Of a stretch of 64,000 nucleotides of DNA, positions 10,602 through 53,154 are shown one piece after another. Source of the stretch: Candidatus Hydrogenedentota bacterium (GTDB lineage: Bacteria > Hydrogenedentota > Hydrogenedentia > Hydrogenedentales > SLHB01); contig JAWXCN010000032.1 in assembly GCA_034408725.1 (NCBI GenBank), forward strand, positions 20,453-84,452, written 5' to 3'. Every line of letters starts with the position of its first letter. The stretch's first letter is position 1. Under the pieces are notes generated by a model. The model had not been told where the DNA came from and made no database searches. It was given only the letters and a program-made list of their open reading frames with translations. Made by a program: the position numbers and the translations under genes.

Positions 10602-12074
10602 TTATTGAATGTACGGTGTGATTTCCAGGTCCCATCGACTTAATGTGACTGATTCAACATGCCCGTCGAGAAAAACTACCCCCCGCGCGGGCTGGTGTTC
10701 TGGCATTGCCGGCAGCAATTCGCGTGAAACCGCAACCGGCACGTCGCTGGCCAGCCTTGAGCGGCTCCAGGAGGGCATTTCGTCCCAAACAAGTGGAGCA
10801 TTCTGTGGGTCTATCTCTGCGGCGAACTCGATCAATTCACGTTCGGTTCGCGCGGGAGTTATCAAGTCGTAAGACAGATTTCCCTCTGCGACCCAAGGCG
10901 AATGCAGTATGTAAGGGTCCGCAAGATATTCGGGATATAGGGAGAACCATCCAGCGGGAAGATAGCCATTGTGCTCCCCCTGGAACATTTTCAGGGCAAG
11001 TCCAAGCAGTTTGAGGTTCATGAATTCCTGATTGCGCAATTCCTCCTGGGTAACGCCTTGCGCGGGACGCTCTTCGCCTGATAGCGGGAGCTGCGCGTCG
11101 CCTCGGTCCGTGGCCAGAAGGACCAGCGTCGGATTCTCAAATTCAATCTGCGCGATCGGCTTGTAGACTGGCGTCTCTCCGCCCCAGACTTCCCGTAGCC
11201 GCCGCTCCAGTTCAGTGAGGTTTTCCGCCGTTGGATTCTTTCGCAGTCCGAGCAGTTCTTCTTTCGGAAGACTCACCGTACTGCCTCTCTGTCCCGCCGC
11301 GAGATAGGTGATTTTCCGGCCGGGTTGATTGTCGAGGATCGATGGATCATCCAGAAAATCAGGCACGAGTTGGTTCAAGGAGACAGGAAAGGAACCATGA
11401 TGCGCGGCAGCAAAATCCAACAATGCCTGCGCGAGTTTCGTGACTTCGGACATGCGCCGCGCTCGCAGATCGATGGCTTCCTGTTCTTGTAGTATTTGCG
11501 CTTCCGGGAGTCTGATCAGTTTCATCCCTCCGTCGTCCATGGAGTAAAACTCCCCATTGAACGTGAACCAGCTTTGGCCGATGGCTTCGGTCAACGTTGG
11601 GTTGAGTTGTCCCTCGAACACGCGGGCAATGTTTTCCCGGGGTTCAAATGTGAGGATCAGTCGCAGCCCTGTTTCAACCTTTGCTTTTGCGCTATCGGAA
11701 TTCCCGCCAGTTACATTGAGCACGGCGCCATCGTGTTTGAATTGAAGCCGTCCACGTGAAAATTCCTCGCCGGTATCAGCGATGGTGAAACGTTCCCACG
11801 TTCCATCAAGTTTGGGTGCAATGTCGAGCTCTTCGGCTGCCGTAGGCTCCTCGACTGGTAGCGCGGCCGCGGGCATCACCGTTGGCGCGGCTTGTGGCGG
11901 TAGTTCCGGCGGGGTCGGGGCTGGTGCTGGCGATGCACTTCTGGAAGCGACTGGCTTGATTGGAGTTGGAGCGTCATCGGTCCGCGCGACGAAGTAAACC
12001 GCGACGCCGGCTACAACAGCCAGAACCAATATTTGGATGGACTTCATGATCGCGCGGACTGGTGGAGTGATCAT
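10602..12074 (-). CDS. Membrane-anchored hypothetical protein with degenerate DUF1559/H-X9-DG-like modules
   Basis: N-terminal TM and Pro-rich linker; 'MNLKLLGLALKMFQGEHNGYLP...LYPEYL' and C-terminal 'GVVFLDGHVE'; start is 12074 (GGGAG RBS) or 12047. Confidence 0.7.
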   Translation of the reverse strand: MITPPVRAIMKSIQILVLAVVAGVAVYFVARTDDAPTPIKPVASRSASPAPAPTPPELPPQAAPTVMPAAALPVEEPTAAEELDIAPKLDGTWERFTIADTGEEFSRGRLQFKHDGAVLNVTGGNSDSAKAKVETGLRLILTFEPRENIARVFEGQLNPTLTEAIGQSWFTFNGEFYSMDDGGMKLIRLPEAQILQEQEAIDLRARRMSEVTKLAQALLDFAAAHHGSFPVSLNQLVPDFLDDPSILDNQPGRKITYLAAGQRGSTVSLPKEELLGLRKNPTAENLTELERRLREVWGGETPVYKPIAQIEFENPTLVLLATDRGDAQLPLSGEERPAQGVTQEELRNQEFMNLKLLGLALKMFQGEHNGYLPAGWFSLYPEYLADPYILHSPWVAEGNLSYDLITPARTERELIEFAAEIDPQNAPLVWDEMPSWSRSRLASDVPVAVSRELLPAMPEHQPARGVVFLDGHVESVTLSRWDLEITPYIQ

Positions 12075-12255
12075 AGAAAACTCCCTGTATTGTTTACTGT
12101 AAATGGCGGCAGGGGTGTAAAGCGATCTATTGGTTGGCGACGGGACATGCTGGTCTTTTGGCAAACGAGGCGGTGCGAACGCGGATTATCGAGCAACGAT
12201 TGCGATGACCAGCACGAGCAGGAAAAAATAGGACGAGTATGAGGGATTGGGTGAA

Positions 12256-14519: not shown

Positions 14520-16325
14520 ATGACGACAGCATCGGCAGCCGTAGCGTGGGCGCCACAAACCAGTGAAATTGAAAGCCGGGCGCAAAATGCCGGTATTCCC
14601 ATCCATGCCAACACCGTGGACGAAGTATTGCGCATTCGTGCGGAAGCGCATCCGGACGAGATTGCCTACGTCTTTCTCGAAGACGGCGAAGTTGAAGGCC
14701 CTTCGTATACCTATGCGCAGTTGGACCGCCGCGCAAAGGCGATCGCCGCGTATCTGTTGGAGCAATGCAACCCGGGCGACCGAGCGCTGCTGATTTTCCC
14801 GCCTGGCCTGGATTATATGGCCGCATTTTTTGGGTGCTTATACGCGGGCGTCGTGGCGGTGCCCGTGTATCCGCCCGATCCGGGCCGGTTAAACCGGAGC
14901 CTTCCGCGACTAAAAGTTATCGCGAACGACGCGGACACGCATATCGCGTTGACGACGAATTACGTGATGCCGTTGTGCGAAATGTTTTCCGCGCAGGACC
15001 CGGACTTCGCAAAGTTCACTTGGATGCCGGTGGACTCCATTCCGGATGAGAAGGCTGACAGTTGGCGCGGCGAAATCTCGAAGTCTGACAGCGTCGCGTT
15101 TCTACAGTACACTTCCGGATCCACGGCGGACCCGAAAGGCGTGATGGTCACGCATGCAAACCTCCTCTACAACCTTTGGGATTTGAGCTATCTCTGGCAT
15201 AGCGAAATGGCGCGGGGACGGCTGGTGACGTGGTTGCCGGCGTACCACGACATGGGGCTGATCTTTGGTCTGTTGTATCCCATGTATCTGCGGTGGCCGT
15301 GCTACGTGATGTCGCCGCTTGCGTTCTTGCAGCATCCAGTTCGATGGTTGCAGGCGATTGCCAAGTACAAGGCGACGTACAGTTGCGCGCCGAATTTCGC
15401 GTTTGATTTGTGTTCGCGAAAGGTTACCGCGGCGCAAAAGGCGTCCCTTGATCTGTCGTCATGGAGTGTTGCGGGAAACGGGTCCGAACCGATCCGGCCT
15501 GAAACGCTTGAAAGGTTTGTCGAAGCATTCAAGGAATGTGGCATAACGCCGAGCCTATTCAAACCCGGTTATGGTCTTGCCGAAGCCACGTTGAAGGTGT
15601 GCGGCACGCGACCGGACGAAATGTACTGGACACTGTCGGTTTCGGGTGAAGAACTTGAGCACCATCGTGTAGTCATTGTTGCGCGCGACACTCCTGGCGC
15701 GCGCACGCTCGTGGGCAACGGCCGCTCGCATCTCACCACGCGCACGATCATAGTTGATCGCGACACGGGCATTCAGTGCAAACCGGATACGGTCGGCGAA
15801 ATATGGGTCGCGGGGCCGACAATTGCCAACGGCTATTGGAACCAGCCTGAAGCGACGGATGAAATTTTTAATGCGCGGCTGTCGGACACCAACGAAGGGC
15901 CGTTCTTGCGCACGGGCGATCTGGGATTCCTTCACGATGGGGTCGTGTACGTCACGGGTCGAATCAAGGACCTGATTATTGTCGACGGCGCGAACCATTA
16001 CCCGCAGGACATCGAAATCGCGGTCGAGAAAAGTCACGCCGCCATTCGGCCCGGGTGCGTCATTGCGTTCTCAATTGTGGAGAACGGCGAAGAAAAACTG
16101 GTCGTCGTGGCCGAGGCCGGCGGCATCCCTGAAGGGGACAACGAAGCGAAGCCGGTCATTACGGCTGTGCGCAAAGCCGTCGCGCAGGAACACAATTTGC
16201 GGGTCCATAAAGTATGTTTGATCCAGCCGCGCTCAATCACAAAAACCAGTAGCGGAAAGTTGCAGCGGCAAGCGTCGAAGCGCGGCTACCTGGAAGACAC
16301 ACTCGACGTCATTGCGGTCGGATAG
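14520..16325 (+). CDS. Fatty acyl-AMP ligase (FAAL)
   Basis: 'FLQYTSGSTADPKGV', 'WLPAYHDMGLI', 'APNFAFDLC', 'GYGLAEATL' followed by the FAAL-type insertion, 'FLRTGDLGF', 'KTSSGKLQR'. Confidence 0.93.
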   Translation: MTTASAAVAWAPQTSEIESRAQNAGIPIHANTVDEVLRIRAEAHPDEIAYVFLEDGEVEGPSYTYAQLDRRAKAIAAYLLEQCNPGDRALLIFPPGLDYMAAFFGCLYAGVVAVPVYPPDPGRLNRSLPRLKVIANDADTHIALTTNYVMPLCEMFSAQDPDFAKFTWMPVDSIPDEKADSWRGEISKSDSVAFLQYTSGSTADPKGVMVTHANLLYNLWDLSYLWHSEMARGRLVTWLPAYHDMGLIFGLLYPMYLRWPCYVMSPLAFLQHPVRWLQAIAKYKATYSCAPNFAFDLCSRKVTAAQKASLDLSSWSVAGNGSEPIRPETLERFVEAFKECGITPSLFKPGYGLAEATLKVCGTRPDEMYWTLSVSGEELEHHRVVIVARDTPGARTLVGNGRSHLTTRTIIVDRDTGIQCKPDTVGEIWVAGPTIANGYWNQPEATDEIFNARLSDTNEGPFLRTGDLGFLHDGVVYVTGRIKDLIIVDGANHYPQDIEIAVEKSHAAIRPGCVIAFSIVENGEEKLVVVAEAGGIPEGDNEAKPVITAVRKAVAQEHNLRVHKVCLIQPRSITKTSSGKLQRQASKRGYLEDTLDVIAVG

Positions 16326-16364: not shown

Positions 16365-19300
16365 TTGCAGAGTAAAGAAGCGATTCAAGCCTGGATCATC
16401 GCCCACCTTTCGGAAGAGACGGGCATTGATGCGCGCGAGATCGATCCTAACGCGGCATTTGATGATCTCGGTGTCGCCTCGCGCGACGCGGTGACCCTGT
16501 CGGGCGATTTGGAAGATTGGCTTGGCCGTACGTTGTCCCCGACGTTGTTGTGGGACCATCCGTCGATTGCGGCTCTGGCCGAACATCTTGCGGGCGGAGC
16601 GCCTCTGGCTGGAAGCGCAACGGCGCACGTGCTCGTGGCGGAAGTTCACGAACCCATTGCAATCATAGGAATTGGCCTTAAGGTTCCGGGTGCGTCATCG
16701 CCATCTGAATTTTGGTCAATGTTGATCGAGGGCCGGGACGCCATTGGCGCCGTGCCCGCGGATCGCTGGGACAACGCGGCCTATTACGATCCCAACCCCG
16801 GCACGGCCGGAAAAATGTACACGGAACGCGGCGGTTTTCTCGATCGCGTCGATTTGTTTGATGCCGATTTTTTCGGAATCCCGCCGCGCGAAGCGGCGCG
16901 TATGGATCCTCAGCAGCGGTTGTTGATCGAGGCGGCGTGGGAAGCACTCGAAGACGCGGGCATCGCGCCGCCGAGTCTCGCGGGCAGCGACACGTCGGTG
17001 TTCGTTGGCATCAGTTCGAGCGATTACGCGCAGCTTCAAATGAGCGATCCATCCCTGGTTGATGCCTACGCAGGCACGGGAAACGCGCACAGCCTCGCGG
17101 CAAACCGGATTTCATATTTCCTTGATCTGCGCGGGCCGAGCGTTGCGATTGATACGGCGTGTTCGTCGTCCTTGGTCGCAGTGCATCAGGCCGTGGGTAG
17201 TTTGCGTAAGGGCGAGAGCAGTATCGCGCTCGCGGGCGGAGTCAACGTGCTGCTCTCACCAGAAGTGAACATGGTGTTTTCGCATGCGCGCATGATGGCG
17301 CCGGACGGACGTTGCAAAACTTTTGACGCAACCGCGGACGGATATGTGCGGGGCGAGGGTTGCGGCGTCGTGGTGTTGAAACGCCTTTCCCGCGCGGTGG
17401 CCGATGGCGATTCGATCTATGCCGTGATTCGCGGTACCGCTATCAACCACGATGGACGAAGCAATGGCATTACCGCTCCGAACGGGTTGGCGCAACAGGA
17501 CGTGATTCGCCGCGCACTGGCCGATGCGGGCCTGCAATCAACCGACGTGGGATATGTCGAAGCACACGGCACGGGCACGTCGCTCGGCGATCCCATTGAA
17601 GTCGAGTCTTTGAAAGCGGTGCTGTTGCCGTCGCGCGACGCGAATGCGCCGGTCGTGCTTGGCGCGTTGAAAACAAATATAGGCCACCTTGAGGCCGCTG
17701 CGGGGATTGTGGGTTTGATTAAGACCGCGCTGGTGCTCGACAAAGGTGTGATACCCGCGACGCTGCACGTGCGCGAGGTGAACCCGCTGATCCAGTTGGA
17801 CGGCACGCCGATGCGAATCGCTGTCGAACAGGAGCCGTGGCCGCGGGGAGCGCGTCCGCGTATCGCCGGCGTCAGCTCATTCGGGTTCGGCGGTGCGAAC
17901 GCGCACGCGGTGCTTGAAGAAGCGCCAGAAACCGCAAACAAGAAACCGGCACATGAAGACCGTCCGCAGCACGTGCTTGCGTTGTCCGCAAAGACTGAAT
18001 CCGCGTTGCGAACGTTGGCGGGCTCATACGCAAACGAATTGAACACGCATCCGGGTTCTTTTCCGGACTTTTGCTACACCGCGAACATTGGCCGCTCGGG
18101 ACTCGAGAATCGCGCGTCGATACTTGGCTCGAACGCGGCGGACGCAGTCGCTGCGCTTCGGGAAATTGCCCAAGGCGAAACGCCGAAACCGGTGGTGGCC
18201 GGCACGGCGCCGCGCGGCGCTTCAACGCCGGTTGCATTTTTATTTACGGGCCAGGGTTCGCAGTTTGTACAAATGGGCCGTGGATTGTATGAAAGCAACC
18301 CGGTATTCCGGCGCGTCATGCAGGAATGCGACGAAGTACTGGGCACGCGGCTTGACAAGCCACTGTTGGACATCATCTATCCACGCGAGGGCGAGACTTC
18401 GCCGTTGGATGAAACGGCGTATACCCAGCCCGCGTTGTTTGCAATTGAATATGCGTTATCCGAAGTCTGGCGTTCATGGGGCGTCACGCCCGCGTGCGTG
18501 ATGGGCCACAGCGTGGGCGAGTACGTCGCCGCGTGCGTCGCGGGCGTGTTCACCTTCGAGGACGGCTTAAAACTTATCACCGAGCGCGCGCGCCTGATGG
18601 GCGCGATGCCGCCGGGCGGAACGATGGCCGCCGTGCTTATAGATGCGGAGACGGTGAAACTTGGACTTGCCGAACATGCCGGCGCGGTGACGATCGCTGC
18701 CGTGAACGGACCTGCGAACACGGTCATATCCGGTGCGGAAGAACTGGTTGATGCGATTTGCGCGCAGTTCAAAGCGCAGGGCATCAAATCTGTCAAGCTG
18801 GCGGTATCGCATGCGTTTCATTCGCCGCTGATGGACCCGATGCTCGAGCCGTTCGAAAAGTTTGCCGCGGGATTCACGTTTAAGCCGCCGCGTATTCCGC
18901 TCGTATCCAATCTGATTGGACAGATTCCTGCCGCGGATTTTGCGTTCGATGCAGCCTACTGGCGCAAACACCTTCGCGAAGCGGTGCAATTCCATGCCGG
19001 CATTCAGTCGATGGTGAGCCGCGGCTACACAACATTCGTCGAGGCGGGACCGCAGGCAACGCTGTCGAGTATGGCTGCGCGATGTGTCGAAAAGGACGCC
19101 GCCGCGTGGTTGCCGTCGCTTGCGAAAGGCCAGGACGATTGGCACGTAATATTGCGGTCCCTGCAAACGCTGTATGTAAAGGGCGCATCGATAAACTGGA
19201 AAAGTTTCGATGCCCCCTATTCGCGCGCGCGCGTTCCGATTCCCACGTATCCGTTCGAGCGTAAGCGGCATTGGCTTGATGTAAATGCGCAAGTCGCGGG

Positions 19301-22300
19301 CGCACCGGTTAAAAAAACGCATCCGATGCCAACACGCTTGCCATCAAAGGACATGGGCGATTGGCTGTACCACGTGCGGTGGATCGAGCAACCTCGCCAA
19401 CCGGCGACTACGGCTACTCCCACGCACTGGATTTTGCTCGCCGACACGAAAGGCGTCGCCGATGCGCTTGCGCAACGCATTCGCGCGCGCGGTGGCCGTG
19501 CGGTTCTCGTTCGACACGGCGCGAGTTATATCGCAACAGGGTCCGATGAGGTGATTCTTGATCCCGCGAGCGACATACAGTTCGATCAACTGTGGAACGA
19601 ATTCGGGACTGGGTGCGGTCGCGTAGTCCATTTGTGGTCACTGGATGCGCCGGCGCTGGAGGAAGCGACATTGGCGGCACTGCATCGCGCGCACGTGTTG
19701 GGTTGCGGCGCTGCGCTGCATTTGATTCAGTCCATCACCGCGTCCGGCGAACAGAGCGGGCGAAATGCGGCAAGTCATCCGCGGCGGCTGTTGTGGTGCA
19801 TTACGCGCGGCGCGCAGGTTGTCGCGGCATCTACCGCCGGTGTGCAGGCCGCGCAAGCGCCGCTGTGGGGATTTGGCCGCAGCGCGGCGTTGGAAAACGC
19901 GGCGCTCTGGGGCGGCATGATCGATCTCGATCCGCTCGCGGATGCGAATGATATCGAAGCATTGCTTTTCGAACTCGACGCGCCTGACGCTGAAAACCAG
20001 ATGGCGTTGCGCGGAGGCGCACGTTATGTAGCAAGGTTCGCGCGGATCAAGGACGCACTTCCCACAAACGGAATTGGCCACATCAAGTGCCGCGAAGATG
20101 CGACGTATGTCGTTACCGGCGGATTGGGCGGATTGGGCTTGCAAGTGGCGAAATGGCTTGGTGATCGCGGCGCGAAACATATCGTGTTGTTCGGACGCAC
20201 GCCACTACCGTCACGCGACCAGTGGGAAACATTAAGCGATGACGCGCGCGAGCGCGTCGATGCCGTGCAGGCGCTTGAGGCGCGAGGCGTTGCGGTGCGC
20301 TGCGAGCCCGTGGATGTTTCCGACGAGACGGCCCTTCAATCGTTTATTGATGCGCATGCGCGGAACGGAATGCCCGCGATCCGCGGCATCGTACACGCCG
20401 CGGGCGTCATTGACGATCATACCGTGAACGAGCTCAGCATGGACTCGCTGACGGCCGTGATGCGCCCAAAAGTGGACGGAACGATGCTGTTGCACCGTCA
20501 CTTTGGCGGGCACGGCAACGGTTCGGGCGATCCGCTTGATTTTTTTGTGATGTTTTCGTCGGTGGCATCCGTGATGGGATCGCCGGGCCAGGCCAACTAT
20601 GCCGCGGGCAACGCGTTCATGGACGCACTAGCCCATCATCGGCGCGCGCAAGGGCGCACCGCTCTGAGCATCAATTGGGGGCCTTGGGCTGAAGTCGGGA
20701 TCGCTTCTCGTGGCGATATTCAAAAGCGGTTGTCGATGCAGGGCATCGGCTGCATCCAACCTGAAGACGGAATTGCCGCGCTGGATTCGCTTTTGTCCGC
20801 GGATGCGGAACAGGTGGGCGTGTTGCAGGCGGACTGGGACAAGCTGGTCACGCGCGCGCCCGGCATTGCCGAGTCCCCGCTGTTCGCGGAACTGTTGAAC
20901 GGACACGCAAAACGGGCGGAAGCAGCACCCGGCAAGCCTCTGGGCCGTGGGGTGGCAAGCGACGTTGAGGCGATCGAAGCATTATTGCGGCGGCAGGTCG
21001 CGCAGATTCTTTATCGCGACGAGGAAGAGATATCCGTTGATCGCAATTTCGGCGAACTAGGCCTTGATTCGATCATGTTGATGGAACTCGTGAACAGCGT
21101 CGAACGCGACATTGGCGTGCGGTTGTTTCCGAAAGAACTGTTCGATCGGCCGACAATAGCCGCTCTTGCGCCTTATTTGGTCGGCGAAGTCGCTAAGTAC
21201 GAAGCGCGCGTGGAGGGTAAGGCCCCTTCGACCGGCGCAGGCGTGCGCGTCGCATTGCCGGCGGTACGGTTGAAAAAAATCGGCCCCGCGGTGCGCAACA
21301 AACCGATTGCATTTCTGTTGTCCGCGCCGCGTTCCGGTTCTACGCTTTCGCGCGTGATGCTCGCCGGACACAAGGACCTGTTTTGCCCGCCAGAATTGCA
21401 CTTTCTGCAATGCAACAGCATGGGCGAGTGGCGCGAAGGCATTGGCGCGACATATATCAGCGAAGGACTGCAACGCGCGTTGATGGAATTGCATAACCTG
21501 GATGCGGATGCGGCGCGGGTGATGTACGAGCAGTGGGTGCGCGAAGATTGGCCAGTGGAAAAGGCTTACGCGGCGATTCAGGAAGCGGCGGGCCCGCGCT
21601 TGCTCATTGACAAGTCACCTTCGTATGGAACGGACATCGAAGTGCTCGAACACGCTGAACGCCTGTTCGACGGACCGAAATATATTCACCTGGTGCGGCA
21701 CCCCTATTCCGTGATCGAATCTTTCATGCGCAATCGCTTCGAGAAAATACTCGGCGATACCGATGCCGAGCCGATGGCGTTGGCGGAAGAAGTCTGGACT
21801 TTGATGAATGCAAACATCAGCGATTTCTTATCCACTATCGACGACAAACGGAAATGCCTGGTTCATTACGAAGACATCGTCGCGAAACCCGAAGAGACGA
21901 TGCAGCGCCTATGCGAATTTCTCGATGTGCCATACGATCCCGCGGTCATCAAACCCTACGAAGGTGAACGCATGACTGACGGCATTCACAACAAATCGAT
22001 GGGCATTGGGGATCCGAATTTCCTCAAGCACAAGGAAATTGATCCGTCGCTGGGCGAAGTGTGGAAACGCATTCGGCTTCCGCGCAAGCTGGGCGGGTTC
22101 GCGCGGCGCGTCGCAGCCGAATTGGAATATGTTTTGCCAGTGGAAACGCCGGGGTCGATCAACGCCGATCTGGGTATTTCGTCAACCGTCCCGCACGTTG
22201 TCGCAATCCAGCCCAAGGGAGATCGTCCGCCGTTTTTCTGTTGCGCGCCCGCGGGCGGCATGACGTACATGTACTTCCATCTACCGCGCTACCTCGGCGA

Positions 22301-23129
22301 TGATCAACCCATCTACGGTTTGCAAGACCCTGCGCTGAATCCGCTGTTCGACCCGCACACGACAATGGAATCGTTGTGCGCGGAACAGGCGAAAGCGATC
22401 CGCAAGATTCAACCGAATGGACCGTATTACCTTGGTGGTTGGTCGTTCGGCGGCGCGGTCGCGTTCGAGACGGCGCAGCAGTTGATGGCGGCGGGCGAAC
22501 AGGTCGCCTATCTCGGAATTATCGATACGGAGGCCCGCATCGAAAAGCATCGCGCGAAAACCTGGAAGGATCGGCTGAGGTTGGCCGGAGGCCAGCTCAA
22601 GATGTCGTTTAAGGTCATCGGACATTGGGGGCCTTATGCGAAGGATTTCATTTATATTATTCTTCCGTCCGCATTGAAGAAAAAGGACAAGGCGGGTGAG
22701 CCGTCGTTGTGGGAGTACATCACGTTTGCATGGGCGGACGCGATTCGCCACACGCTGGTGAAGCGCGCGGACATTGCGAACGTGGTTACGCGTGACAGCC
22801 GGGTGTTGTTGGTGAAGCAACCCGCGACTCGCCGCACCCTGAAAGTATTGAAGGCGAATTTACGCGCATTGCTTGCGTATAAACTCAAGCCGTATCCGGG
22901 AACCATCACGCTCTTGCGCGCCGAGGACCAGACAATCATGCACAAGCTCCACGAGGACTGGACCCTTGGTTGGGGAGACCTGGCACAGGGCGGATTGGAC
23001 GTCGTCGAAGTTCCGGGCAATCACGCTGTGCTGTTAAGCCCGCCTTATATCGAGCGTGTGGGCGAAGTGCTGCGCGAGGGCATCGACAAGGCAATGGCCA
23101 AGTACGGCGCAACTCCGGACACCGAATAG
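16365..23129 (+). CDS. Type I PKS, ACP-KS-AT-KR-ACP-sulfotransferase-TE (Ols/CurM-like domain order)
   Basis: ACP1 'LGVASRDA'; KS 'DTACSSSL', 'EAHGTGT', 'KTNIGHLE'; AT 'GHSVGE' and 'HAFHS' (malonyl type); KR 'GGLGGLG', 'HAAGVIDD', 'YAAGN'; ACP2 'LGLDSIM'; ST 'FLLSAPRSGSTLSRVMLAGH...PPELH', 'DKSPSY', 'GDPNF' (about 21300-22080); TE 'GWSFGG...PGNH'; TTG start. Confidence 0.95.
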   Translation: MQSKEAIQAWIIAHLSEETGIDAREIDPNAAFDDLGVASRDAVTLSGDLEDWLGRTLSPTLLWDHPSIAALAEHLAGGAPLAGSATAHVLVAEVHEPIAIIGIGLKVPGASSPSEFWSMLIEGRDAIGAVPADRWDNAAYYDPNPGTAGKMYTERGGFLDRVDLFDADFFGIPPREAARMDPQQRLLIEAAWEALEDAGIAPPSLAGSDTSVFVGISSSDYAQLQMSDPSLVDAYAGTGNAHSLAANRISYFLDLRGPSVAIDTACSSSLVAVHQAVGSLRKGESSIALAGGVNVLLSPEVNMVFSHARMMAPDGRCKTFDATADGYVRGEGCGVVVLKRLSRAVADGDSIYAVIRGTAINHDGRSNGITAPNGLAQQDVIRRALADAGLQSTDVGYVEAHGTGTSLGDPIEVESLKAVLLPSRDANAPVVLGALKTNIGHLEAAAGIVGLIKTALVLDKGVIPATLHVREVNPLIQLDGTPMRIAVEQEPWPRGARPRIAGVSSFGFGGANAHAVLEEAPETANKKPAHEDRPQHVLALSAKTESALRTLAGSYANELNTHPGSFPDFCYTANIGRSGLENRASILGSNAADAVAALREIAQGETPKPVVAGTAPRGASTPVAFLFTGQGSQFVQMGRGLYESNPVFRRVMQECDEVLGTRLDKPLLDIIYPREGETSPLDETAYTQPALFAIEYALSEVWRSWGVTPACVMGHSVGEYVAACVAGVFTFEDGLKLITERARLMGAMPPGGTMAAVLIDAETVKLGLAEHAGAVTIAAVNGPANTVISGAEELVDAICAQFKAQGIKSVKLAVSHAFHSPLMDPMLEPFEKFAAGFTFKPPRIPLVSNLIGQIPAADFAFDAAYWRKHLREAVQFHAGIQSMVSRGYTTFVEAGPQATLSSMAARCVEKDAAAWLPSLAKGQDDWHVILRSLQTLYVKGASINWKSFDAPYSRARVPIPTYPFERKRHWLDVNAQVAGAPVKKTHPMPTRLPSKDMGDWLYHVRWIEQPRQPATTATPTHWILLADTKGVADALAQRIRARGGRAVLVRHGASYIATGSDEVILDPASDIQFDQLWNEFGTGCGRVVHLWSLDAPALEEATLAALHRAHVLGCGAALHLIQSITASGEQSGRNAASHPRRLLWCITRGAQVVAASTAGVQAAQAPLWGFGRSAALENAALWGGMIDLDPLADANDIEALLFELDAPDAENQMALRGGARYVARFARIKDALPTNGIGHIKCREDATYVVTGGLGGLGLQVAKWLGDRGAKHIVLFGRTPLPSRDQWETLSDDARERVDAVQALEARGVAVRCEPVDVSDETALQSFIDAHARNGMPAIRGIVHAAGVIDDHTVNELSMDSLTAVMRPKVDGTMLLHRHFGGHGNGSGDPLDFFVMFSSVASVMGSPGQANYAAGNAFMDALAHHRRAQGRTALSINWGPWAEVGIASRGDIQKRLSMQGIGCIQPEDGIAALDSLLSADAEQVGVLQADWDKLVTRAPGIAESPLFAELLNGHAKRAEAAPGKPLGRGVASDVEAIEALLRRQVAQILYRDEEEISVDRNFGELGLDSIMLMELVNSVERDIGVRLFPKELFDRPTIAALAPYLVGEVAKYEARVEGKAPSTGAGVRVALPAVRLKKIGPAVRNKPIAFLLSAPRSGSTLSRVMLAGHKDLFCPPELHFLQCNSMGEWREGIGATYISEGLQRALMELHNLDADAARVMYEQWVREDWPVEKAYAAIQEAAGPRLLIDKSPSYGTDIEVLEHAERLFDGPKYIHLVRHPYSVIESFMRNRFEKILGDTDAEPMALAEEVWTLMNANISDFLSTIDDKRKCLVHYEDIVAKPEETMQRLCEFLDVPYDPAVIKPYEGERMTDGIHNKSMGIGDPNFLKHKEIDPSLGEVWKRIRLPRKLGGFARRVAAELEYVLPVETPGSINADLGISSTVPHVVAIQPKGDRPPFFCCAPAGGMTYMYFHLPRYLGDDQPIYGLQDPALNPLFDPHTTMESLCAEQAKAIRKIQPNGPYYLGGWSFGGAVAFETAQQLMAAGEQVAYLGIIDTEARIEKHRAKTWKDRLRLAGGQLKMSFKVIGHWGPYAKDFIYIILPSALKKKDKAGEPSLWEYITFAWADAIRHTLVKRADIANVVTRDSRVLLVKQPATRRTLKVLKANLRALLAYKLKPYPGTITLLRAEDQTIMHKLHEDWTLGWGDLAQGGLDVVEVPGNHAVLLSPPYIERVGEVLREGIDKAMAKYGATPDTE

Positions 23130-23144: not shown

Positions 23145-24065
23145 ATGATTCCACACCTGTTTGCGCTGCACCCCGCAGGTTCAAAACTGCCTTTTTTTCT
23201 TTGCGCCCCGGCCGGGGGCGTTTTGTTTCCGTGCTACAACGTGCTGAATTATTGGGACGTGGAACGTCCTTTTTACGCGTTGCAGGATCCCAGTCTGAAC
23301 AAGGATACGCCTTTATTTCAGACGGTCGCGGAACTGGCGCGCGCGAATCTTGATGTGCTGAAATCGTTTCAGCCGGAAGGGCCGTATTTGATCGGGGGCT
23401 GGTCTTTTGGGGCGATGGTGGCATTGGAAATGGCGCATATACTGAGCGCCGCGGGCGAAGAAGTTGAACTCATCGTGCTCGACATGCGCGTGAACGGTCC
23501 GGGGCGCGAATCACCGCTTGCGAACCTAACGCCGATTCAGAAGGCCGTGGTGATTCCCCGGCTTATCGTGGCGGTGTTTAGCCATACGGGACCCTATTTC
23601 CGTGACGGTTTCTATGTACTGTTTGGCGACATGATTCGCCGCGGATCGAAAGCGTCACCGTTGCTGACGTTGATCATGAAGCTGATGGGCCGAGCGCCGA
23701 TTGCGGACATCATCGAGCAGCGACCGCATCTCGATGGCATTCAGCCGCCGGGCCTGTTCAGGTGTCTGCGCGTGCTTGGCGCGAACATGCGGGCGTTTCG
23801 CAACTATGTGCCGAAACCGTTGGATATTCATGGCGCGTTGATCAAGGCCAGTGACAGCGCGTCGCTCGGGTTGCACGACCCGGATCCCGCAATGGGTTGG
23901 ACGAGCATCACGACAAGCGGGTTGGATATTTATGACACGCCGGGCAACCATGTGACGCTGATGCTGGAACCGGCGCTTGGGGTCGTGGGGAAGTGCTTGA
24001 ATGACGCGCTCGAAAACGCCGAACAACGGTTGTTGATGCCTGACACACTGACCGGCACGGACTAA
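23145..24065 (+). CDS. Stand-alone thioesterase, paralogous to the PKS C-terminal TE
   Basis: 'PFFLCAPAGG', 'YALQDPSLN', 'GPYLIGGWSFGA', 'PGNH'. Confidence 0.9.
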   Translation: MIPHLFALHPAGSKLPFFLCAPAGGVLFPCYNVLNYWDVERPFYALQDPSLNKDTPLFQTVAELARANLDVLKSFQPEGPYLIGGWSFGAMVALEMAHILSAAGEEVELIVLDMRVNGPGRESPLANLTPIQKAVVIPRLIVAVFSHTGPYFRDGFYVLFGDMIRRGSKASPLLTLIMKLMGRAPIADIIEQRPHLDGIQPPGLFRCLRVLGANMRAFRNYVPKPLDIHGALIKASDSASLGLHDPDPAMGWTSITTSGLDIYDTPGNHVTLMLEPALGVVGKCLNDALENAEQRLLMPDTLTGTD

Positions 24066-24086: not shown

Positions 24087-24839
24087 GTGAGGGTGGAGGA
24101 AACGGTGATGTGGGAAAGCCCTCAACAATTTCCCGAATTGCGCGCGGGTGACGTCCATGTCTGGAAGATACCGCTTAACCAAACCCCGGCTGTGATCTGC
24201 GCGCTTTCGCGCGCCCTTGCCTCCGACGAACGCGAGCGGGCGGCGCGATTCCATTTTGAAAAAGGCCGACAGCAGTACATTGTTTCGCGCGGGGCGTTGC
24301 GAGAATTGCTGGGCGGATACCTGGGTGAAAGCGCGGCAGCGATTCGTTTTGATTATTCACCGCGCGGCAAGCCTGGACTCGACACAGCGCACGCAAGCGA
24401 TATTGCCTTTAATCTGACGCATTCGGGAGCGCTGGCGTTGGCGGCGTTCGCGCGCGGGGCGCGGGTTGGCGTGGACATTGAGCGTATGCGGGACGAATTC
24501 GATAGCCAACGCATCGCGGACAGGTTTTTCACGCCGGAGGAGTCCGCGGCGTTGCGCGGCGCGGATGAATCGGAACGGCTATTGCGCTTCGCGGAGCAGT
24601 GGACCCGGAAAGAGTCATTTATCAAGGCGCGTGGCGAGGGCTTGTCGTTTCCGCTGGATGCGTTTTCGATTCTGCTCGAGGGGGAGGAACTTGCGCTGCG
24701 CATTGCGCAGAGTCCAGTGGAAGCGGGGAGGTGGACGGTGCGCGATCTGGAAATTGATGAAGGGTATGCGGCGGCGTTGTGTGTTGAAGCGCGGGGGAGT
24801 GGGATGCGCGGGTTTGTTTGGGAGGGGATAGAGACCTGA
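24087..24839 (+). CDS. Sfp-type 4'-phosphopantetheinyl transferase
   Basis: 'RGKP', 'FNLTHSG', 'VGVDIE', 'WTRKESFIKARGEGL'. Confidence 0.93.
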   Translation: MRVEETVMWESPQQFPELRAGDVHVWKIPLNQTPAVICALSRALASDERERAARFHFEKGRQQYIVSRGALRELLGGYLGESAAAIRFDYSPRGKPGLDTAHASDIAFNLTHSGALALAAFARGARVGVDIERMRDEFDSQRIADRFFTPEESAALRGADESERLLRFAEQWTRKESFIKARGEGLSFPLDAFSILLEGEELALRIAQSPVEAGRWTVRDLEIDEGYAAALCVEARGSGMRGFVWEGIET

Positions 24840-28511: not shown

Positions 28512-29423
28512 ATGCGAATGCAGGCAGCGGTGATTTGTGCGGCCCTTTGTCTGGCTGGTGCGGCAAATGGAGAGGACGACATTTTTGATCGTGTCAAACA
28601 CGGGTACGCGGAAAACCAGGGAGTGAAAGTTCATTACGCGTCGCTGGGTGAAGGCCCGCTCGTAATTATGATCCACGGATTCCCCGACTTCTGGTATTCG
28701 TGGCGGAGCCAAATGGCCGCGCTTTCCGACCAGTTTACGCGCGTCGCAATGGACCTTCGCGGATACAACCTCAGCGATAAGCCTGCGGGCAATGAGAATT
28801 ACGCGATGCCGCATATCCTCGGCGACGTGGCCGCGGTGATCAAGGCCAACGGCGCGGAAAAGGCGACAGTCGTCGGCCACGATTGGGGCGGGGCGATTGC
28901 GTGGCAATTCGCAATGCACATGCCGCAGATGGTCGAGCGCTTGGTGATTTGCAATCTGCCGCACCCTCGCGGGTTCATGCGCGAGATGGCCAACAACCCG
29001 GAGCAGCAGAAGAACAGCGCGTACGCCCGCGGGTTTCAAAAGGAAGGCGCGGAAAAGGGATTGAGCGCGGAAGGCCTGGCGGGATTCGTCGCCAAGGGAG
29101 ATCCAGCGGTGACGGCGCGATACGTAGAGGCGTTCAAACAGTCCGACTTCACGGCGATGCTCGCTTACTACAAGGTCAACTATCCGCGCGAACCGTATCA
29201 GGAAGATTCGGGGCCGGTGATTCGCATCGCTGTTCCGGTGCTCGTGTTTCACGGGTTGAAAGACACCGCGCTCGGCGCGAAGGCATTGAACGATACGTGG
29301 GATTGGCTCGACGCAGACCTTACGCTGGTAACCGTGCCGAATGCCAACCATTGGGTACATCACGACGCGCCGGAGCTGGTGTCGAAGACAATGAAATTCT
29401 GGTTGGCGCGGGACGCGAAGTAA
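28512..29423 (+). CDS. Secreted alpha/beta hydrolase (epoxide-hydrolase-like)
   Basis: Signal peptide; 'HGFPD', 'DLRGYNLS', 'GHDWGG', 'HWVHHD'. Confidence 0.9.
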
Positions 29424-29447: not shown

Positions 29448-31136
29448 GTGGCAACGGCCATGATGTCCGCGTTACTACCGATGTCCGCGCTGTTGCGGCG
29501 GGAGCTTTTGCGGCACGTGCGCCGCGTGCGGGTGTTTCTCGCGGTTGCGGCGTTGCTGTGCATCTGCGGGTGGGTCATCTGGTCGTATTGGCCTGATGCA
29601 CCTATCCCAGTACTGGAGGTCGCCGCCGAGCGAGGTGGTCTGACGACAACGTTGTTGGCCGTGCTTCTGGCGGCATCGTTTGTGATTGTCCCTGGCTACG
29701 CGGCGATGGCCATTCGCGCTGAGCGCGACAACGACACGTATGAGTTGATGCGGCTCACCCTGTTGACGCCGCTTTCGATTCTGCTCGGCACGCTGCTCAA
29801 TATCACCGGAATGTTTGCGATAGGACTTGTCGCCGCGCTCCCGTTTTTGTATACGACGCATTGGATGGGCGGGTTGCCGTGGCACTATCTGCCGATCAGG
29901 CTTGGGATCATACTTTCGTCCACGGTGACCGCGGCTTCGATAGGTGTACTGGCGTCCACGCAACGCCAGAAGACCTCAGACGCCGTCGGTTCAGCCTTCA
30001 TTTACACGATGTTGCTGCAACTTGGCGTATTAACTCTGCCGCTGCGCCTCATCGCGCTCCTTGTTGACGAATATACGCAGTTGCAAGGTGTGGCAGATGC
30101 CCTCAGAACAACCGCGTTGCACAGCTCACCGATATGGGCGATTGGAATGCGCACTGGGTTGGGGTCGTCGTTGATTTGCATTGCATCACAAGTTGTGTTT
30201 TCGGCCGTGATCCTGTTCATTGCCTGGAAGCGGCTGGGGGATTTTGAGTTCAAGACTGCCAAAAATAAATCGGTACAGTCTTGGTTCGCGCCTTCCGAAC
30301 TGCGTGCGAAGTATCGCCGCGCGCACACATATCCTGATGGGAAGAATCCGGTGTTTGTGCGCGAATTCCACGACGCGATGCAACGGGCACAAGTTGACGT
30401 GACCAGTAGCTTGTTCGCCGTCTTGTTTACCGCATCAGCATTTGTCGTTGCTTTTGTGCGTATGTGGGTTCTGGCGAAGTCAAAATCGGGCCCCTATGGT
30501 CTTGACGAACTGACATATTATTTCATGGGATGTATTTTTCTCGGCGGGATACTGATTCCCGGGTTGAGCACGCCTACGTGGATCAGCGAGCGCAACACGG
30601 AAGCGGAAGAATCGCTTGAGATGAGCCTGCTCACGAGGCGGGAGCGGTTTTGGGGTAGGGCCAGCGCGGCGGCGGCGCTCCCGGTGATCGTCATCACATG
30701 CTGTCTCGTTGGCGCATCGCCCGTGTTGATGGCGGTGCCGCGTATCCCCGGCGGATATGTCGGCGCGTTGGCAGGGTATTTCGCCGTTGTCGCGACGGTG
30801 GTGGTGTTGCTGGCGGTGGGCCGCGTGATCGCGCGACTCCCGATCAGTGCGGTATCCGCGGTTGCGCTCGCGTATGTTGTGTCCATCGCCTACATGGGAT
30901 TGCCGGTATTGGCCGCGGGATGGTCGCAAGAGAACTCCCGCGATGTGATGGGGAACTTTGTCGCGAGCATTAGTCCGATTACGGGATTCTTGCGGGTTCT
31001 TCAGTCTCGCGCGATGGGAGTTTGGTACGACGGGCCGGTTTTCAAATGTGCCGTGTTCATAATGGTGCAATCTGTGATTACGGCGGCGCTGTTGTGGACA
31101 GATTTGAAGGCTGAGCGAAAACTTCGGAATCGATAG
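29448..31136 (+). CDS. Multi-TM ABC-2-type permease-like membrane protein with two repeated halves
   Basis: 'AIRAERDNDTYELMRLTLLTP' and 'SERNTEAEESLEMSLLT' motifs, linker 'NPVFVRE', about 12 TM segments. Confidence 0.7.
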   Translation: MATAMMSALLPMSALLRRELLRHVRRVRVFLAVAALLCICGWVIWSYWPDAPIPVLEVAAERGGLTTTLLAVLLAASFVIVPGYAAMAIRAERDNDTYELMRLTLLTPLSILLGTLLNITGMFAIGLVAALPFLYTTHWMGGLPWHYLPIRLGIILSSTVTAASIGVLASTQRQKTSDAVGSAFIYTMLLQLGVLTLPLRLIALLVDEYTQLQGVADALRTTALHSSPIWAIGMRTGLGSSLICIASQVVFSAVILFIAWKRLGDFEFKTAKNKSVQSWFAPSELRAKYRRAHTYPDGKNPVFVREFHDAMQRAQVDVTSSLFAVLFTASAFVVAFVRMWVLAKSKSGPYGLDELTYYFMGCIFLGGILIPGLSTPTWISERNTEAEESLEMSLLTRRERFWGRASAAAALPVIVITCCLVGASPVLMAVPRIPGGYVGALAGYFAVVATVVVLLAVGRVIARLPISAVSAVALAYVVSIAYMGLPVLAAGWSQENSRDVMGNFVASISPITGFLRVLQSRAMGVWYDGPVFKCAVFIMVQSVITAALLWTDLKAERKLRNR

Positions 31137-49593: not shown

Positions 49594-50655
49594 TTACATT
49601 TCTCGGTTGGCAAAACTTATCTCGAAAAATTTATCCAAGTCAAGCCGATAAACCCGTCTGCAGCCACTTGTGTATTGTTCGGGATGTGCGAACTCACGCG
49701 GTGTGGGATAGGCAATAGTAATGTCGTCCATAAATGCGCGAAAAATACCCACTGCAACAGCCTGCATTTTACTGCCGGTGGGCGCTACTATAATTCGCTC
49801 AAATTCGCCGTGCGCGTTGTATATATTTGAAAGGTTATCAATGGTCTCACCGTATTCCAATGTGCTGGCATAAAAATCCTCTCTCGACGCCAAAGAATTC
49901 GTGTTATTCAATTCTTGAATCGCCTTTAATCGCCATATATTTTCCTCCGCTGGAGGAATTCCATGAATCAAAGTAATTGCTGATGGCTGAGTTTCATTTC
50001 TTAGTGCTGATAGTTGATCAACATTGAAAGAGGGGAAAAATACTAATCTCGTTGGTTGTCCTTGAAGTGCGACGGACGACAATTCCGGTATAATGGCAAC
50101 TTCAATCACGCCCTTTGACAGAAATAATATATCATAGGGATTATACCCCCTGTCGGCAATTCTTCTGGCAACCTCTTTTTGATCAGGCGGGTACTTTTCT
50201 GCTTCGGTATAGATAACAGTGCAATTGCTAAAGCCCATCGAATGCTTACCGACAGCCGCTAAAATCTGAACAATGAGCAATTTCGACATTGCAGATATAT
50301 CAATGAATAAACGCCCTTTGCCGGACCTGATACTTTCAAGAAGTTCTTCGCCGAACCACGCTGGATCTTCTCTATCGTAGACTCCTGACATATTATTTAC
50401 GGCACGGTTATCCGCAAAGAGTTCTATCTCTGCAGATCTATTTTGAACCAGACTGGGAGAGTAAATGATTTTAAACACCGTGATATCGTTTGGGCACTTC
50501 GTCGCGACCAAACTTGGTACATAGTGAGCTCGATCCTCAAATCCGGCGCAATAGACAAGCTCGTCGCCTGGCTCAAGAGCCAAGTCAGCAATAGAAGTGA
50601 GGCGGGGCTTGTCAACCTGGCAAAGCAACTGGTCGATTCTGAGGACAGTATGCAT
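49594..50655 (-). CDS. Hypothetical protein, possibly tandem CARF-like Rossmann domains
   Basis: 'CAGFEDR...LFIDISAMSK...VIYTEAEKY' and 'LVFFPSF...IIVAPTGSKMQAV...IAYP'; TAA-ATG coupling to the upstream gene. Confidence 0.65.
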   Translation of the reverse strand: MHTVLRIDQLLCQVDKPRLTSIADLALEPGDELVYCAGFEDRAHYVPSLVATKCPNDITVFKIIYSPSLVQNRSAEIELFADNRAVNNMSGVYDREDPAWFGEELLESIRSGKGRLFIDISAMSKLLIVQILAAVGKHSMGFSNCTVIYTEAEKYPPDQKEVARRIADRGYNPYDILFLSKGVIEVAIIPELSSVALQGQPTRLVFFPSFNVDQLSALRNETQPSAITLIHGIPPAEENIWRLKAIQELNNTNSLASREDFYASTLEYGETIDNLSNIYNAHGEFERIIVAPTGSKMQAVAVGIFRAFMDDITIAYPTPREFAHPEQYTSGCRRVYRLDLDKFFEISFANREM

Positions 50656-53154
50656 TTATATATCCTCTTCTTTAGTATCAGTAAACTCCAATTGCACGTC
50701 ATCGGTGCCCATCCGAACGGATGGCCCATACTCCGAAAAAGGTTTGCGAAGGCGATAGGCATCCTCAAATTTATTTGGATTGAGTAAAAGGCCTTCAATT
50801 TCGCTTGGTTCTAACTCAACCGAATCTCTCCGACTAAACGTGAGGCCAAAATGTGGAAGTAAGCATCGACGCAAATACAAGCGGGGAACCACTTTGCCGC
50901 GTCGACTTTTTCCACGCGGATCTTCAATGAATAAAGAATATCGAAGCAACTCTCTATAAACGCTCAACGCCTCTTTTCCTAAATTTAAATCCTCATATGG
51001 TTCGATTCGAGATGCCAAATAGGGTGGCGATGAACTTTCATTCTTGCTGTCCCGAAACTTAAGATAGGAAAAGGCGACAACTGCGAACGCGGTCACGACA
51101 TGAACTAAATGCTCGCCGTTGCTAGTGCCGCGCAAACCCTGCAAAAAACTCCCAGCTTCAGAGCGAATTGCATCGGCTTGTATCTCCTTCCGAAGTTTCG
51201 GTACTGCTGGCGATGTTTTAAGGGCAGACGCTCCTCCGGCGTCCTCGATCATGCGGCCAACCAGTCCAATCAGATAGAAAACATCTCCGCTACACAATTC
51301 AGAAAGTGAATGTCGGCCCCAAACGTTAAGTTTTTTGTCGTTTCTGATGGCACGTGCTATATCGTTGTAGCTCCTTGAGTCTGACTCTCCTAGAAGCTCT
51401 AATAGAGTTTTAACAGGATATCCTTCGACGGCACCAAATCTTCTTGCAAACACATCTTCAATAAAAGCCAATTTTTCGTCTGGCTTAGCATGCAGAAAAA
51501 CAAGACCCAAGTTTAATAGCTGAAACTCACGTCCTTCAACGTATGATTTCCCGTCGATATCGGAACGCGCGTACGAAACGGGGCTTTCAGTAGAAAGTTT
51601 AAAAAAACAACATGATGTTCGCTGCATAAATAGTCTGTTAAGATTCTTTTGCAAATCGAGGGTGATCTTGGGCATCGAGTAATCATCAACAAAGAAATAA
51701 AATGGGCGGTTATCAAGGCTCGGAAACTGCCTTAGAATCGCAGCGCACACAGTAGGCAAGATATCTGGACCCCAAAGGCCTTCCATTGGGTGGTCATAGG
51801 TAAATCTATGTTTTAATCTAGCGCGTTTACGCTGCTTTGCCATAGCAAACTTTAGCGCTTCGAAAGTATTGCCACTTGGTTCAGTTATCGGATTTAGCTC
51901 AAGAAGTTTCAACAAATCGGAAGTCAGCTTTGATTCCAATTCCCGGAATTGGTCGGGAAAACTGACACTGGTCCATTGTTCAATTGTTTCCAATACCTGT
52001 GAAATCAGAGTGGCCGATATGAAGTGCATGGGTAAATCTATCGCTTCGGTTCTCGAAGGTATTTCGTAACGTGGAAATGTTCCGTACAAGTCATCGCATC
52101 GATAGTAAATGCCAATATACGGAATGGTCGACAAATACTCGTCGCTTACCAATAATCGGTGCTGTAAGCTAAGACTCTTGAAGACAGTTGTCTTTCCACA
52201 GCCTCTAGGTCCAGTTAGTACCAAATTATTCCTATCTTCGATTTGGGTGACGCCTAGAAATTTGTTCGAATAAAGGGATCGCAATAGGCCATGGGAATCT
52301 CCTATTTGTTCACAACTCAAATAGTCGAACGGACTCGATAGGGAAACTTTCGTTTTTACCTGAGCCTCGCGGTGAAACGCCGTTGGGATATCTAGGAGTT
52401 TATGGTAAAGACCTTCGGGATTGCGGGCCAATTGATCGCGCGTGCGATCCCTTTCAGTCAAATGCCGAGCCAGAAAATGCGTATTTAGGACGTTATAGGT
52501 GTATCTTTCGAGTGGACTACAGTCTTGATAGTTAATATTTGCAAGGAGTTCCTGTAAGATGAGAGCCGTCTGATCATAATCGTCGCGGGCTTGGGACTCG
52601 CTCGTTGCTGATGTTACACCAAAGTCTGTTACGCGTATTCGATAATCCGGACCACCGAGTTGGCCAGTGCAATCTTCTACGAGAACATTCCCAGCGTGTA
52701 TATCACCATGCCGAACGTGCATTTGTTCCATGTTGTGGAGCAACGCGAACATTGCCTTTAAAAAGTCCTCTATGAAGCCAACGCGGATCTGGTGCAGATG
52801 CTGTTTAATATACTCGCGTAGATCGATGCCTGGAATATATTCAAAGAAAAGAAGAACACAATCTATATCGTTTGCTTCATCGAGCCAGGCCGTCATGGTT
52901 TGGAATCGTACCGCCACTGGCGTACTTAAGATGGCAACTTTTCGTATTTCGTCGAGCCATTGCGATTCTTGAGCATTGACAAGGTTCACACGAGGAATTA
53001 TTTTGCAAGCGACGGTATGTGAAGTGTTGGTGGCGAACGCTTCAAACATTAGTCCATTTAGTCCACTTTTAATCAACCGTACAATTTTATAGTCGTCGCG
53101 ACCCGGTATCGTGTGTTGTAGAAAAAATTCCGGTTTTGGAAGATTGCGTTTCAT
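50656..53154 (-). CDS. Ser/Thr protein kinase domain fused to an ORC/Cdc6/STAND-like P-loop ATPase
   Basis: Kinase: 'IKSGLNGLMF', 'VACKII', 'FEYIPG', 'HGDIHAGNVLV', 'TDFG'. ATPase: 'SPF', Walker A 'GPRGCGKTT', Walker B 'FYFFVDDY', 'FFKLSTE'. Confidence 0.85.
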   Translation of the reverse strand: MKRNLPKPEFFLQHTIPGRDDYKIVRLIKSGLNGLMFEAFATNTSHTVACKIIPRVNLVNAQESQWLDEIRKVAILSTPVAVRFQTMTAWLDEANDIDCVLLFFEYIPGIDLREYIKQHLHQIRVGFIEDFLKAMFALLHNMEQMHVRHGDIHAGNVLVEDCTGQLGGPDYRIRVTDFGVTSATSESQARDDYDQTALILQELLANINYQDCSPLERYTYNVLNTHFLARHLTERDRTRDQLARNPEGLYHKLLDIPTAFHREAQVKTKVSLSSPFDYLSCEQIGDSHGLLRSLYSNKFLGVTQIEDRNNLVLTGPRGCGKTTVFKSLSLQHRLLVSDEYLSTIPYIGIYYRCDDLYGTFPRYEIPSRTEAIDLPMHFISATLISQVLETIEQWTSVSFPDQFRELESKLTSDLLKLLELNPITEPSGNTFEALKFAMAKQRKRARLKHRFTYDHPMEGLWGPDILPTVCAAILRQFPSLDNRPFYFFVDDYSMPKITLDLQKNLNRLFMQRTSCCFFKLSTESPVSYARSDIDGKSYVEGREFQLLNLGLVFLHAKPDEKLAFIEDVFARRFGAVEGYPVKTLLELLGESDSRSYNDIARAIRNDKKLNVWGRHSLSELCSGDVFYLIGLVGRMIEDAGGASALKTSPAVPKLRKEIQADAIRSEAGSFLQGLRGTSNGEHLVHVVTAFAVVAFSYLKFRDSKNESSSPPYLASRIEPYEDLNLGKEALSVYRELLRYSLFIEDPRGKSRRGKVVPRLYLRRCLLPHFGLTFSRRDSVELEPSEIEGLLLNPNKFEDAYRLRKPFSEYGPSVRMGTDDVQLEFTDTKEEDI

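Follow-up and report, generated by a model that had tools for sequence, protein, structure and literature searches.

The window described in this work is a stretch of 64,000 nucleotides of contig JAWXCN010000032.1 (assembly GCA_034408725.1, Candidatus Hydrogenedentota bacterium), and it contains a four-gene operon coding for a stand-alone fatty-acid--AMP ligase (FAAL), a polyketide synthase (PKS) of seven domains, a free-standing thioesterase paralogue (TE2) and a 4'-phosphopantetheinyl transferase (PPTase). The intergenic distances are 39 bases (FAAL-PKS), 15 bases (PKS-TE2) and 21 bases (TE2-PPTase). We have focused on positions 21300-23129, the C-terminal quarter of the PKS open reading frame (ORF), in which a sulfotransferase (ST) like those of CurM and the olefin synthases (Ols) is followed by a thioesterase (TE) like those of nonribosomal peptide synthetases (NRPS). 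Position 21300 is in frame and corresponds to residue 1646, and 23129 is the final base of the stop codon. The genes and the two terminal domains are the following:

14520..16325 (+), stand-alone FAAL, 601 aa (Pfam AMP-binding, E 1.1e-65, and AMP-dom_DIP2-like)
16365..23129 (+), PKS ORF, 2254 aa, ACP1-KS-AT-KR-ACP2-ST-TE (Pfam domain order)
21300..22139 (+), ST domain of the CurM/Ols type, residues 1646-1925 (phmmer)
22140..23126 (+), type I TE domain of the NRPS/Pks13 (PF00975) family (Pfam, phmmer, model)
23145..24065 (+), TE2, free-standing TE paralogue, 306 aa (PF00975, E 2.2e-18)
24087..24839 (+), PPTase of the Sfp/HetI type (Pfam ACPS, E 1e-19, and AASDHPPT_N)

Before reaching the ST the PKS has two acyl carrier proteins (ACP1 and ACP2) flanking a ketosynthase (KS), an acyltransferase (AT) and a ketoreductase (KR), so that both the FAAL and ACP loading part and the single KS-AT-KR extension of the Ols pathway are present by domain content. 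Pfam recognises the KR (E 1.7e-63) and a second PP-binding domain, ACP2, at residues 1540-1604, which places KR and ACP directly before the ST. The motifs of the KS (DTACSSS, EAHGTGT and NIGHLE), the KR (HAAGVIDD and YAAGN) and ACP2 (GLDSIM) are intact, as are those of the AT (GHSVGE and HAFH), which form a malonyl signature (PMC7327777). In NCBIfam, the FAAL matches the fatty-acid--AMP ligase (4.5e-138) and FadD32-like (3.9e-129) models, both under the curated cut-offs, and the PPTase matches HetI (3.1e-50), also under its cut-off. TE2 is 32% identical to the fused TE along its whole length (E 2e-52) and retains the GGWSFGA, VLDM and PGNH motifs.

The sulfotransferase and thioesterase domains

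The first-pass annotation of this DNA, made from the letters alone, had described the ST as one that closely follows the CurM/Ols pattern and the TE as one of the EntF/SrfA-C kind. All the ST and TE motifs that it quoted are present, in frame, in the 2254-aa ORF. In the case of the ST, Pfam assigns PF13469 (E 7e-29), and the phmmer comparison with solved structures gave E 4.7e-93 to 4gox (the ST of an olefin synthase) and E 1.1e-90 to 4gbm (the ST of CurM) over ~280 ungapped residues, a similarity far beyond chance. Its motifs, all in frame, are located as follows:

21327-21347 (+), PRSGSTL
21387-21401 (+), PPELH
21609-21626 (+), DKSPSY
21696-21725 (+), RHPYSVIESF
22008-22022 (+), GDPNF

Ten orthologues, drawn from four genera, all retain PRSGST, PPELH, DKSP, RHPY and GDPNF without change, and their ST-TE region as a whole has a mean column identity of 71%. 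The genome encodes an adenosine 5'-phosphosulfate (APS) kinase and therefore 3'-phosphoadenosine 5'-phosphosulfate (PAPS) can be made; the ST motifs presumably serve PAPS binding and catalysis.

We have also compared 129 ST domains taken from database matches, of which 44 are followed by a PF00975 TE, 60 by a CurM-type tail and 19, the mid-line domains, by a further stretch exceeding 600 residues. Where the proteins with mid-line domains were read, what comes next is a condensation or adenylation domain. At 49 positions the ST is conserved to at least 90% in the three groups alike, and the column comparison revealed no group-specific position, nor any separating the STs linked to a PF00975 TE from those linked to a CurM-type TE. 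An unrooted ST tree spreads the former over several groups of poor resolution that lie outside the set to which most of the latter belong. By sequence, then, this ST belongs fully to the CurM/Ols family.

The TE, on the other hand, is confirmed by sequence and profile comparisons as a PF00975 type I thioesterase of the NRPS/Pks13 type and not of the CurM/Ols type, in agreement with the initial assignment. Pfam gives PF00975 with E 6.4e-28 and 98.9 bits (cut-off 26.4). When the TE alone was compared with solved sequences, the best phmmer matches were 7crn (3e-22), 4zxh (8e-22) and EntF (2roq/3tej, 2.6e-20 to 3.5e-20), followed by the Pks13 TE (4e-15), fungal PKS TEs and the TE of fatty acid synthase (FAS); NCBIfam adds a Pks13 match (4.1e-23). 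The characteristic residues are all in frame:

22227-22259 (+), PPFFCCAPAGG
22434-22454 (+), GGWSFGG
22518-22532 (+), IIDTE
22965-22979 (+), LGWGD
23010-23024 (+), VPGNH
22443-22445, 22524-22526 and 23022-23024 (+), catalytic triad Ser2027, Asp2054 and His2220 (from motifs and alignment)

In TE numbering the triad is Ser102-Asp129-His295; it is invariant in 17 orthologues and paralogues, and the three residues are conserved at 95-100% in ST-linked TEs. An AlphaFold (AF2) model built on a 37-sequence TE alignment is consistent with the alpha/beta-hydrolase core and helical lid of solved TEs. Confidence, expressed as predicted local distance difference test (pLDDT) values, is above 90 in the core, whereas ~100 residues of the lid (residues 130-225) are poorly defined (41-70). 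Foldseek placed the model closest to 4zxh (E 5e-18), and the 50 entries listed by VIA-align, with Z from 27.3 (7crn) down to 21, include NRPS TEs, NocB, EntF, the Pks13 TE (Z 26.0) and the FAS TE. In fact, the TEs of NRPSs (7crn, 4zxh, EntF 3tej/5ja1 and NocB 6ojc) and of Pks13 (5v3x) share with the window's TE the Pfam family, the Ser-Asp-His positions and the fold, and align to it with Z 27.3-24 and a root-mean-square deviation of 2.0-3.2 Å over 199-238 residues. The window's TE differs from these structures in having a longer lid, of ~117 residues with a net charge of +15, which is the part modelled with low confidence.

The relationship to CurM-type TEs is much more distant. BLAST against seven CurM-type TE tails gave no significant match (best E 0.047), and hhalign of 37 TEs of the window's kind against 16 CurM-type TEs (alignment A4) gave a probability of 84.8% and E 6.6e-6, with 16% of the residues identical across 190 columns, in a match that begins only at the nucleophile elbow. 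This is the level expected of two families within one superfold. It had been stated that decarboxylative elimination relies on a distinct TE clade with a Ser-Glu-His triad and a sulfate-recognising Arg. The CurM-type TEs do belong to another family, and R204, R223 and R243 (A4 numbering), which are invariant in them, have no conserved counterpart in the window's kind of TE in the profile alignment. The contrast between Glu and Asp was overstated, because Asp129 (in IIDT), the catalytic acid, occupies the alignment column of the CurM-type acid, and 3 of the 16 CurM-type TEs also have Asp there, so that Ser-Glu-His against Ser-Asp-His is not the real difference. The real differences lie in the fold subfamily, in the lid and in the missing invariant Arg residues. 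The CurM TE (PDB code 3QIT) was not found among the 46 solved sequences matched by phmmer with the TE alone (E up to 10), the Foldseek rows listed or the 50 VIA-align entries listed (Z at least 21). Its absence from them should not be read as a different superfold, as both proteins are, by sequence, alpha/beta hydrolases.

We also searched the 5.17-Mb, 92%-complete genome for a CurM-type TE that could act in trans. A profile of 16 sequences found no full-length member there; its six partial matches (best E 6.7e-18) extend at most over positions 38-169 of the 307 in the profile. One alpha/beta hydrolase of the window, at 28512-29423 (+), was considered as a CurM-type TE and rejected, since it resembles epoxide hydrolases (E 2.7e-58 to 5ng7) and reads HDWGG where A4 has GHSxG. 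This gene lies 5 kb downstream of the operon, and its place beside the sigma-70, phosphoribosyltransferase and HAD genes near the PKS is also kept in genus g17 (see below).

Spread and phylogeny of the ST-TE pairing

In the protein database, ~40 proteins, mostly from metagenome-assembled genomes of Candidatus Hydrogenedentes, match the whole ST-TE region at 96-100% coverage. Cyanobacterial CurM and Ols proteins match the ST half only (45-53% query coverage) and carry PF00561, PF12697 or PF12146 instead of PF00975. A search with the TE alone in 1.84 billion representatives gave 37,418 matches at E ≤1e-3, and the best 150 of them are mostly terminal TEs of synthetases ordered condensation, adenylation, peptidyl carrier protein and TE (C-A-PCP-TE), often as tandem TE-TE, with a minority located behind an ST. 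The window's TE thus differs from most of its nearest database relatives in being fused directly behind an ST in a PKS.

In a FastTree phylogeny of 206 TE domains, 45 of them ST-linked, the window's TE falls in a group of 23 rows, all ST-linked (support 93). The other ST-linked TEs occupy at least seven other places, with at least four places forced by starred branches, and they include C-A-PCP-ST-TE synthetases (from Acidobacteriota and others), FAAL-ACP-ST-TE proteins and PKSs containing a methyltransferase (MT). A mixture-model tree of 54 TE rows agrees with it and nests the window's TE among NRPS TEs; a clustering with the TEs of Ols and CurM, which would have spoken against the early reading of its motifs, was not observed. 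A single clade of ST-linked TEs was rejected by the approximately unbiased (AU) test (p 4e-11, a log-likelihood difference of 124, with 19 ST-linked against 21 sure non-ST rows), the tested group having been named after the first tree was seen.

Comparison of the columns of the 45 ST-linked domains (~22 effective) with those of 160 other TE domains revealed no ST-specific signature. The sole position much more conserved in the ST-linked TEs is Pro37 (0.95 versus 0.55); the values for Arg232 are 0.72 and 0.41. Neither the length nor the charge of the lid differs between the two sets (median net charge +9.5 versus +8, p 0.62), and a long, strongly basic lid is a trait of the whole TE subfamily. 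From these comparisons we conclude that ordinary TEs of this family were fused to the ST on several occasions, and that the ST-linked TEs bear no mark of an adaptation to a sulfated substrate or to decarboxylation.

Three of the database matches (P0030, P0034 and P0037, one of them from Promineifilaceae) are Ols-like FAAL-PKS proteins that end in ST, TE, a carrier-like stretch and a second TE. Their first TE has a Cys nucleophile motif (GRCFG), in the second an Ala replaces the nucleophile (GHALG), and the carrier-like stretch reads GNPL, where a carrier serine motif of the GxDSL type is expected.

Among 135 Hydrogenedentota genomes, 14 (the window's own included) carry a near-full-length match to the ST-TE region, from query residues 1-28 to 594-608: all five of genus g1, five of the six of g17, all three of g18, and G072. 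One Ardenticatenaceae (Chloroflexota) record, L105, has it as well. The fetched loci are organised as follows:

G095 (g1), FAAL-PKS-TE2-PPTase
G096, PKS-TE2, with neither FAAL nor PPTase adjacent
G105, FAAL-PKS-PPTase
G106, FAAL-PKS
G108 (g18), FAAL-PKS(+MT)-PPTase
G072, FAAL-PKS

In each of the four other g1 genomes TE2 lies directly 3' of the PKS, whereas it was not found beside the PKS in the loci fetched from g17, g18 and G072. Genes for an HAD protein, a phosphoribosyltransferase, a sigma-70 factor and an alpha/beta hydrolase flank the operon in both g1 and g17, and therefore it occupies a stable chromosomal place. Other conserved neighbours were looked for as well, but the small ORFs that separate the PPTase gene from the HAD gene produced weak or antisense matches only. 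Two of the three g18 genomes (G109:C35:4183-5982, L015, and G110:C714:18459-20258, L014) have one in-frame TAG within the ST-TE match, which may reflect an error in sequencing, a pseudogene or read-through; the third, G108, has none.

STs of the same family are also found in other assembly-line layouts within the phylum (L069 and L089, as well as G105:C1:196528-207947 and the like in g17). Some are located at the extreme C-terminus, with 12-14 residues after them, and others in an ORF of ~2500 aa with a PF00975 TE in a separate ORF ~10 kb away.

Proposed product and alternatives

The closest characterised system is the Ols of the Synechococcus/Picosynechococcus sp. PCC 7002 type, which has the same logic and the same order (FAAL, ACP, KS, AT, KR, ACP, ST and TE). 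In 4 of 17 cyanobacterial Ols pathways the FAAL has an ORF of its own, as it does here (PMC3903477). The window's system differs from Ols in its PF00975 TE, in place of the PF00561/PF12697-type alpha/beta hydrolase of the cyanobacterial matches, in the additional free TE paralogue and PPTase of the operon, and in its host, a member of the Hydrogenedentota and not a cyanobacterium. CurM, the terminal module of curacin A synthase, and HlaB of haliamide have the same KR-ACP-ST-TE end, although CurM is the last module of a long assembly line and the PKS described here is a one-module fatty acid extender. HlaB is a characterised non-cyanobacterial ST-TE case, and its TE, reported to be 37% identical to that of CurM (PMC6274090), is of the CurM type, unlike the window's TE. 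A full-text literature search returned no paper that describes either an ST coupled to a PF00975 TE or an Ols-like PKS in Hydrogenedentota. The locus is a real and intact variant of a known ST-TE system, conserved and as yet uncharacterised.

The four genes would make up a lipid operon of the Ols kind. According to its domains, the FAAL would adenylate a fatty acid and load it onto ACP1, the KS and the malonyl-specific AT would add two carbons, and the KR would reduce the beta-keto function, giving a 3-hydroxyacyl-ACP2, presumably in the 3R configuration because the IDD of the HAAGVIDD motif is what we take to be the signature of a B-type KR. The CurM/Ols-type ST would then move sulfate from PAPS onto the 3-hydroxyl. 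Taken jointly, these four steps leading to 3-sulfooxyacyl-ACP are very probable by homology to Ols and CurM as presented in PMC3903477. For the fifth step we infer release by simple hydrolysis with the sulfate kept, carried out by the TE as a generic type I enzyme of the NRPS/Pks13 family, which would yield an anionic sulfated lipid, a (3R)-3-sulfooxy fatty acid with two carbons more than the primer. TE2 would most likely function as a second or proofreading TE, as tandem TEs are common in this TE family. Hydrolytic release with retention of the sulfate is favoured over formation of a 1-alkene, with a confidence that stops just short of even odds. More generally, we propose, with a probability of roughly 0.4, that a CurM-family ST followed by an ordinary NRPS-type TE is a widespread, repeatedly assembled and uncharacterised off-loading unit, and that this operon is a dedicated 3-sulfooxy fatty acid pathway making an undescribed class of sulfated lipids or surfactants.

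The TE being unrelated in family to the decarboxylating CurM-type TEs argues for release with the sulfate kept. The comparative evidence also leans mildly to sulfate retention, because the ST-linked TEs are polyphyletic and unspecialised and because the same ST family occurs in mid-line positions where decarboxylation is impossible, as no carboxylate can form at an ST that is followed by condensation domains. Based on the unrooted ST tree, the sulfate-retaining form could even be ancestral, and the cyanobacterial alkene-forming ST-TE could have arisen by recruiting a specialised hydrolase. A precedent for an in-line ST acting as a tailoring domain, and thus for sulfate retention, is found in the oci cyanopeptolin synthetase of Planktothrix, as described in PMC2533009; there the ST lies in the loading region beside a glyceric-acid domain and not between an ACP and a TE, and the likeness is one of description, not of sequence.

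However, several observations weigh against the retention of the sulfate. The domain order is exactly that of Ols, the separate FAAL included, and the ST is 54-56% identical to 'activating' STs without any group-specific residue, so that nothing in it points to a new role. To our knowledge, a terminal alkene is the sole characterised outcome of an ACP-ST-TE end, and we know of no bacterial 3-sulfooxy fatty acid. Sulfation by PAPS is costly for a simple lipid, and sulfate, being a good leaving group, might be eliminated with little assistance from the TE as soon as the carboxylate has been freed. In addition, the lid, modelled at low confidence, may conceal a sulfate pocket.

Much of this fits a convergent olefin synthase, a realistic alternative that we consider somewhat less likely than retention of the sulfate, in which the PF00975 TE would hydrolyse the 3-sulfooxyacyl thioester and a decarboxylative elimination of the sulfate, in the active site or spontaneously, would give a C(n+1) 1-alkene. 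The alignment of the catalytic acid with that of the CurM-type TEs, three of which carry Asp, is compatible with it, and the conserved setting of the operon in two genera, beside HAD, phosphoribosyltransferase and sigma-70 genes, would suit a housekeeping membrane hydrocarbon. On the other hand, the TE is a member of a different family and does not have the Arg residues that are invariant in the CurM-type TEs. Furthermore, polyphyletic ST-linked TEs with no shared signature would imply that olefin formation arose repeatedly or that it needs no special TE, and the latter sits badly with the strict pairing of ST and CurM-type TE in cyanobacteria.

Instead of the hydrolysis that we favour, the TE could pass the 3-sulfooxyacyl group to an acceptor (a sugar, a polyol, a lipid or a second chain) or form a lactone or oligomer, yielding a more complex sulfated lipid. 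The model for such a transfer is the Pks13 TE, which passes mycolate to trehalose. This TE is among the closest solved relatives of the window's TE, the FadD32-like FAAL echoes the FadD32-Pks13 pair, many members of the TE family are cyclising NRPS TEs, and a GT2 glycosyltransferase gene is located 4 kb upstream on the opposite strand. Nevertheless, the similarity to the Pks13 TE is no higher than that to NRPS TEs that hydrolyse or cyclise, the relatives examined share no acceptor-making gene beside the operon, and a sulfated 3-hydroxyl is unusable as an internal nucleophile; we regard transfer or cyclisation as unlikely. A silent ST or a decaying module that yields an ordinary 3-hydroxy fatty acid has nothing direct in its favour beyond the in-frame TAG of G109 and G110, and is very unlikely in view of the intact catalytic motifs of all seven domains, the conservation of the ST positions and of the ST-TE columns, and the APS kinase of the genome.

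The off-loading of chains by ST-TE is the textbook route to terminal alkenes, and it is used in the engineering of drop-in alkenes; the special CurM-type TE is taken to be a requirement for it. In the present case this ST is wired to an unrelated and unspecialised-looking TE, a combination found in a stable operon that several genera of an uncultured phylum share, as well as in peptide synthetases from other phyla. Should an alkene be the product, decarboxylative elimination would proceed without a CurM-type TE and the engineering toolbox would be widened. If it is the sulfated acid, these proteins would make a new family of bacterial sulfated lipids, and the sulfate 'activation' domains would also act in tailoring.

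Other features of the window

Two ORFs near the operon, at 10602-12164 (-) (520 aa) and 29448-31136 (+) (562 aa), match no Pfam family at E up to 0.001. Further away, positions 49594-54434 (-) form a low-GC island (0.45-0.46 versus ~0.57 elsewhere) that codes for a DNA methylase (N6_N4_Mtase/UPF0020), an 832-aa fusion of a protein kinase and an ORC/CDC6-like ATPase, and a 353-aa protein without a Pfam family, and it looks like an acquired defence-type module.

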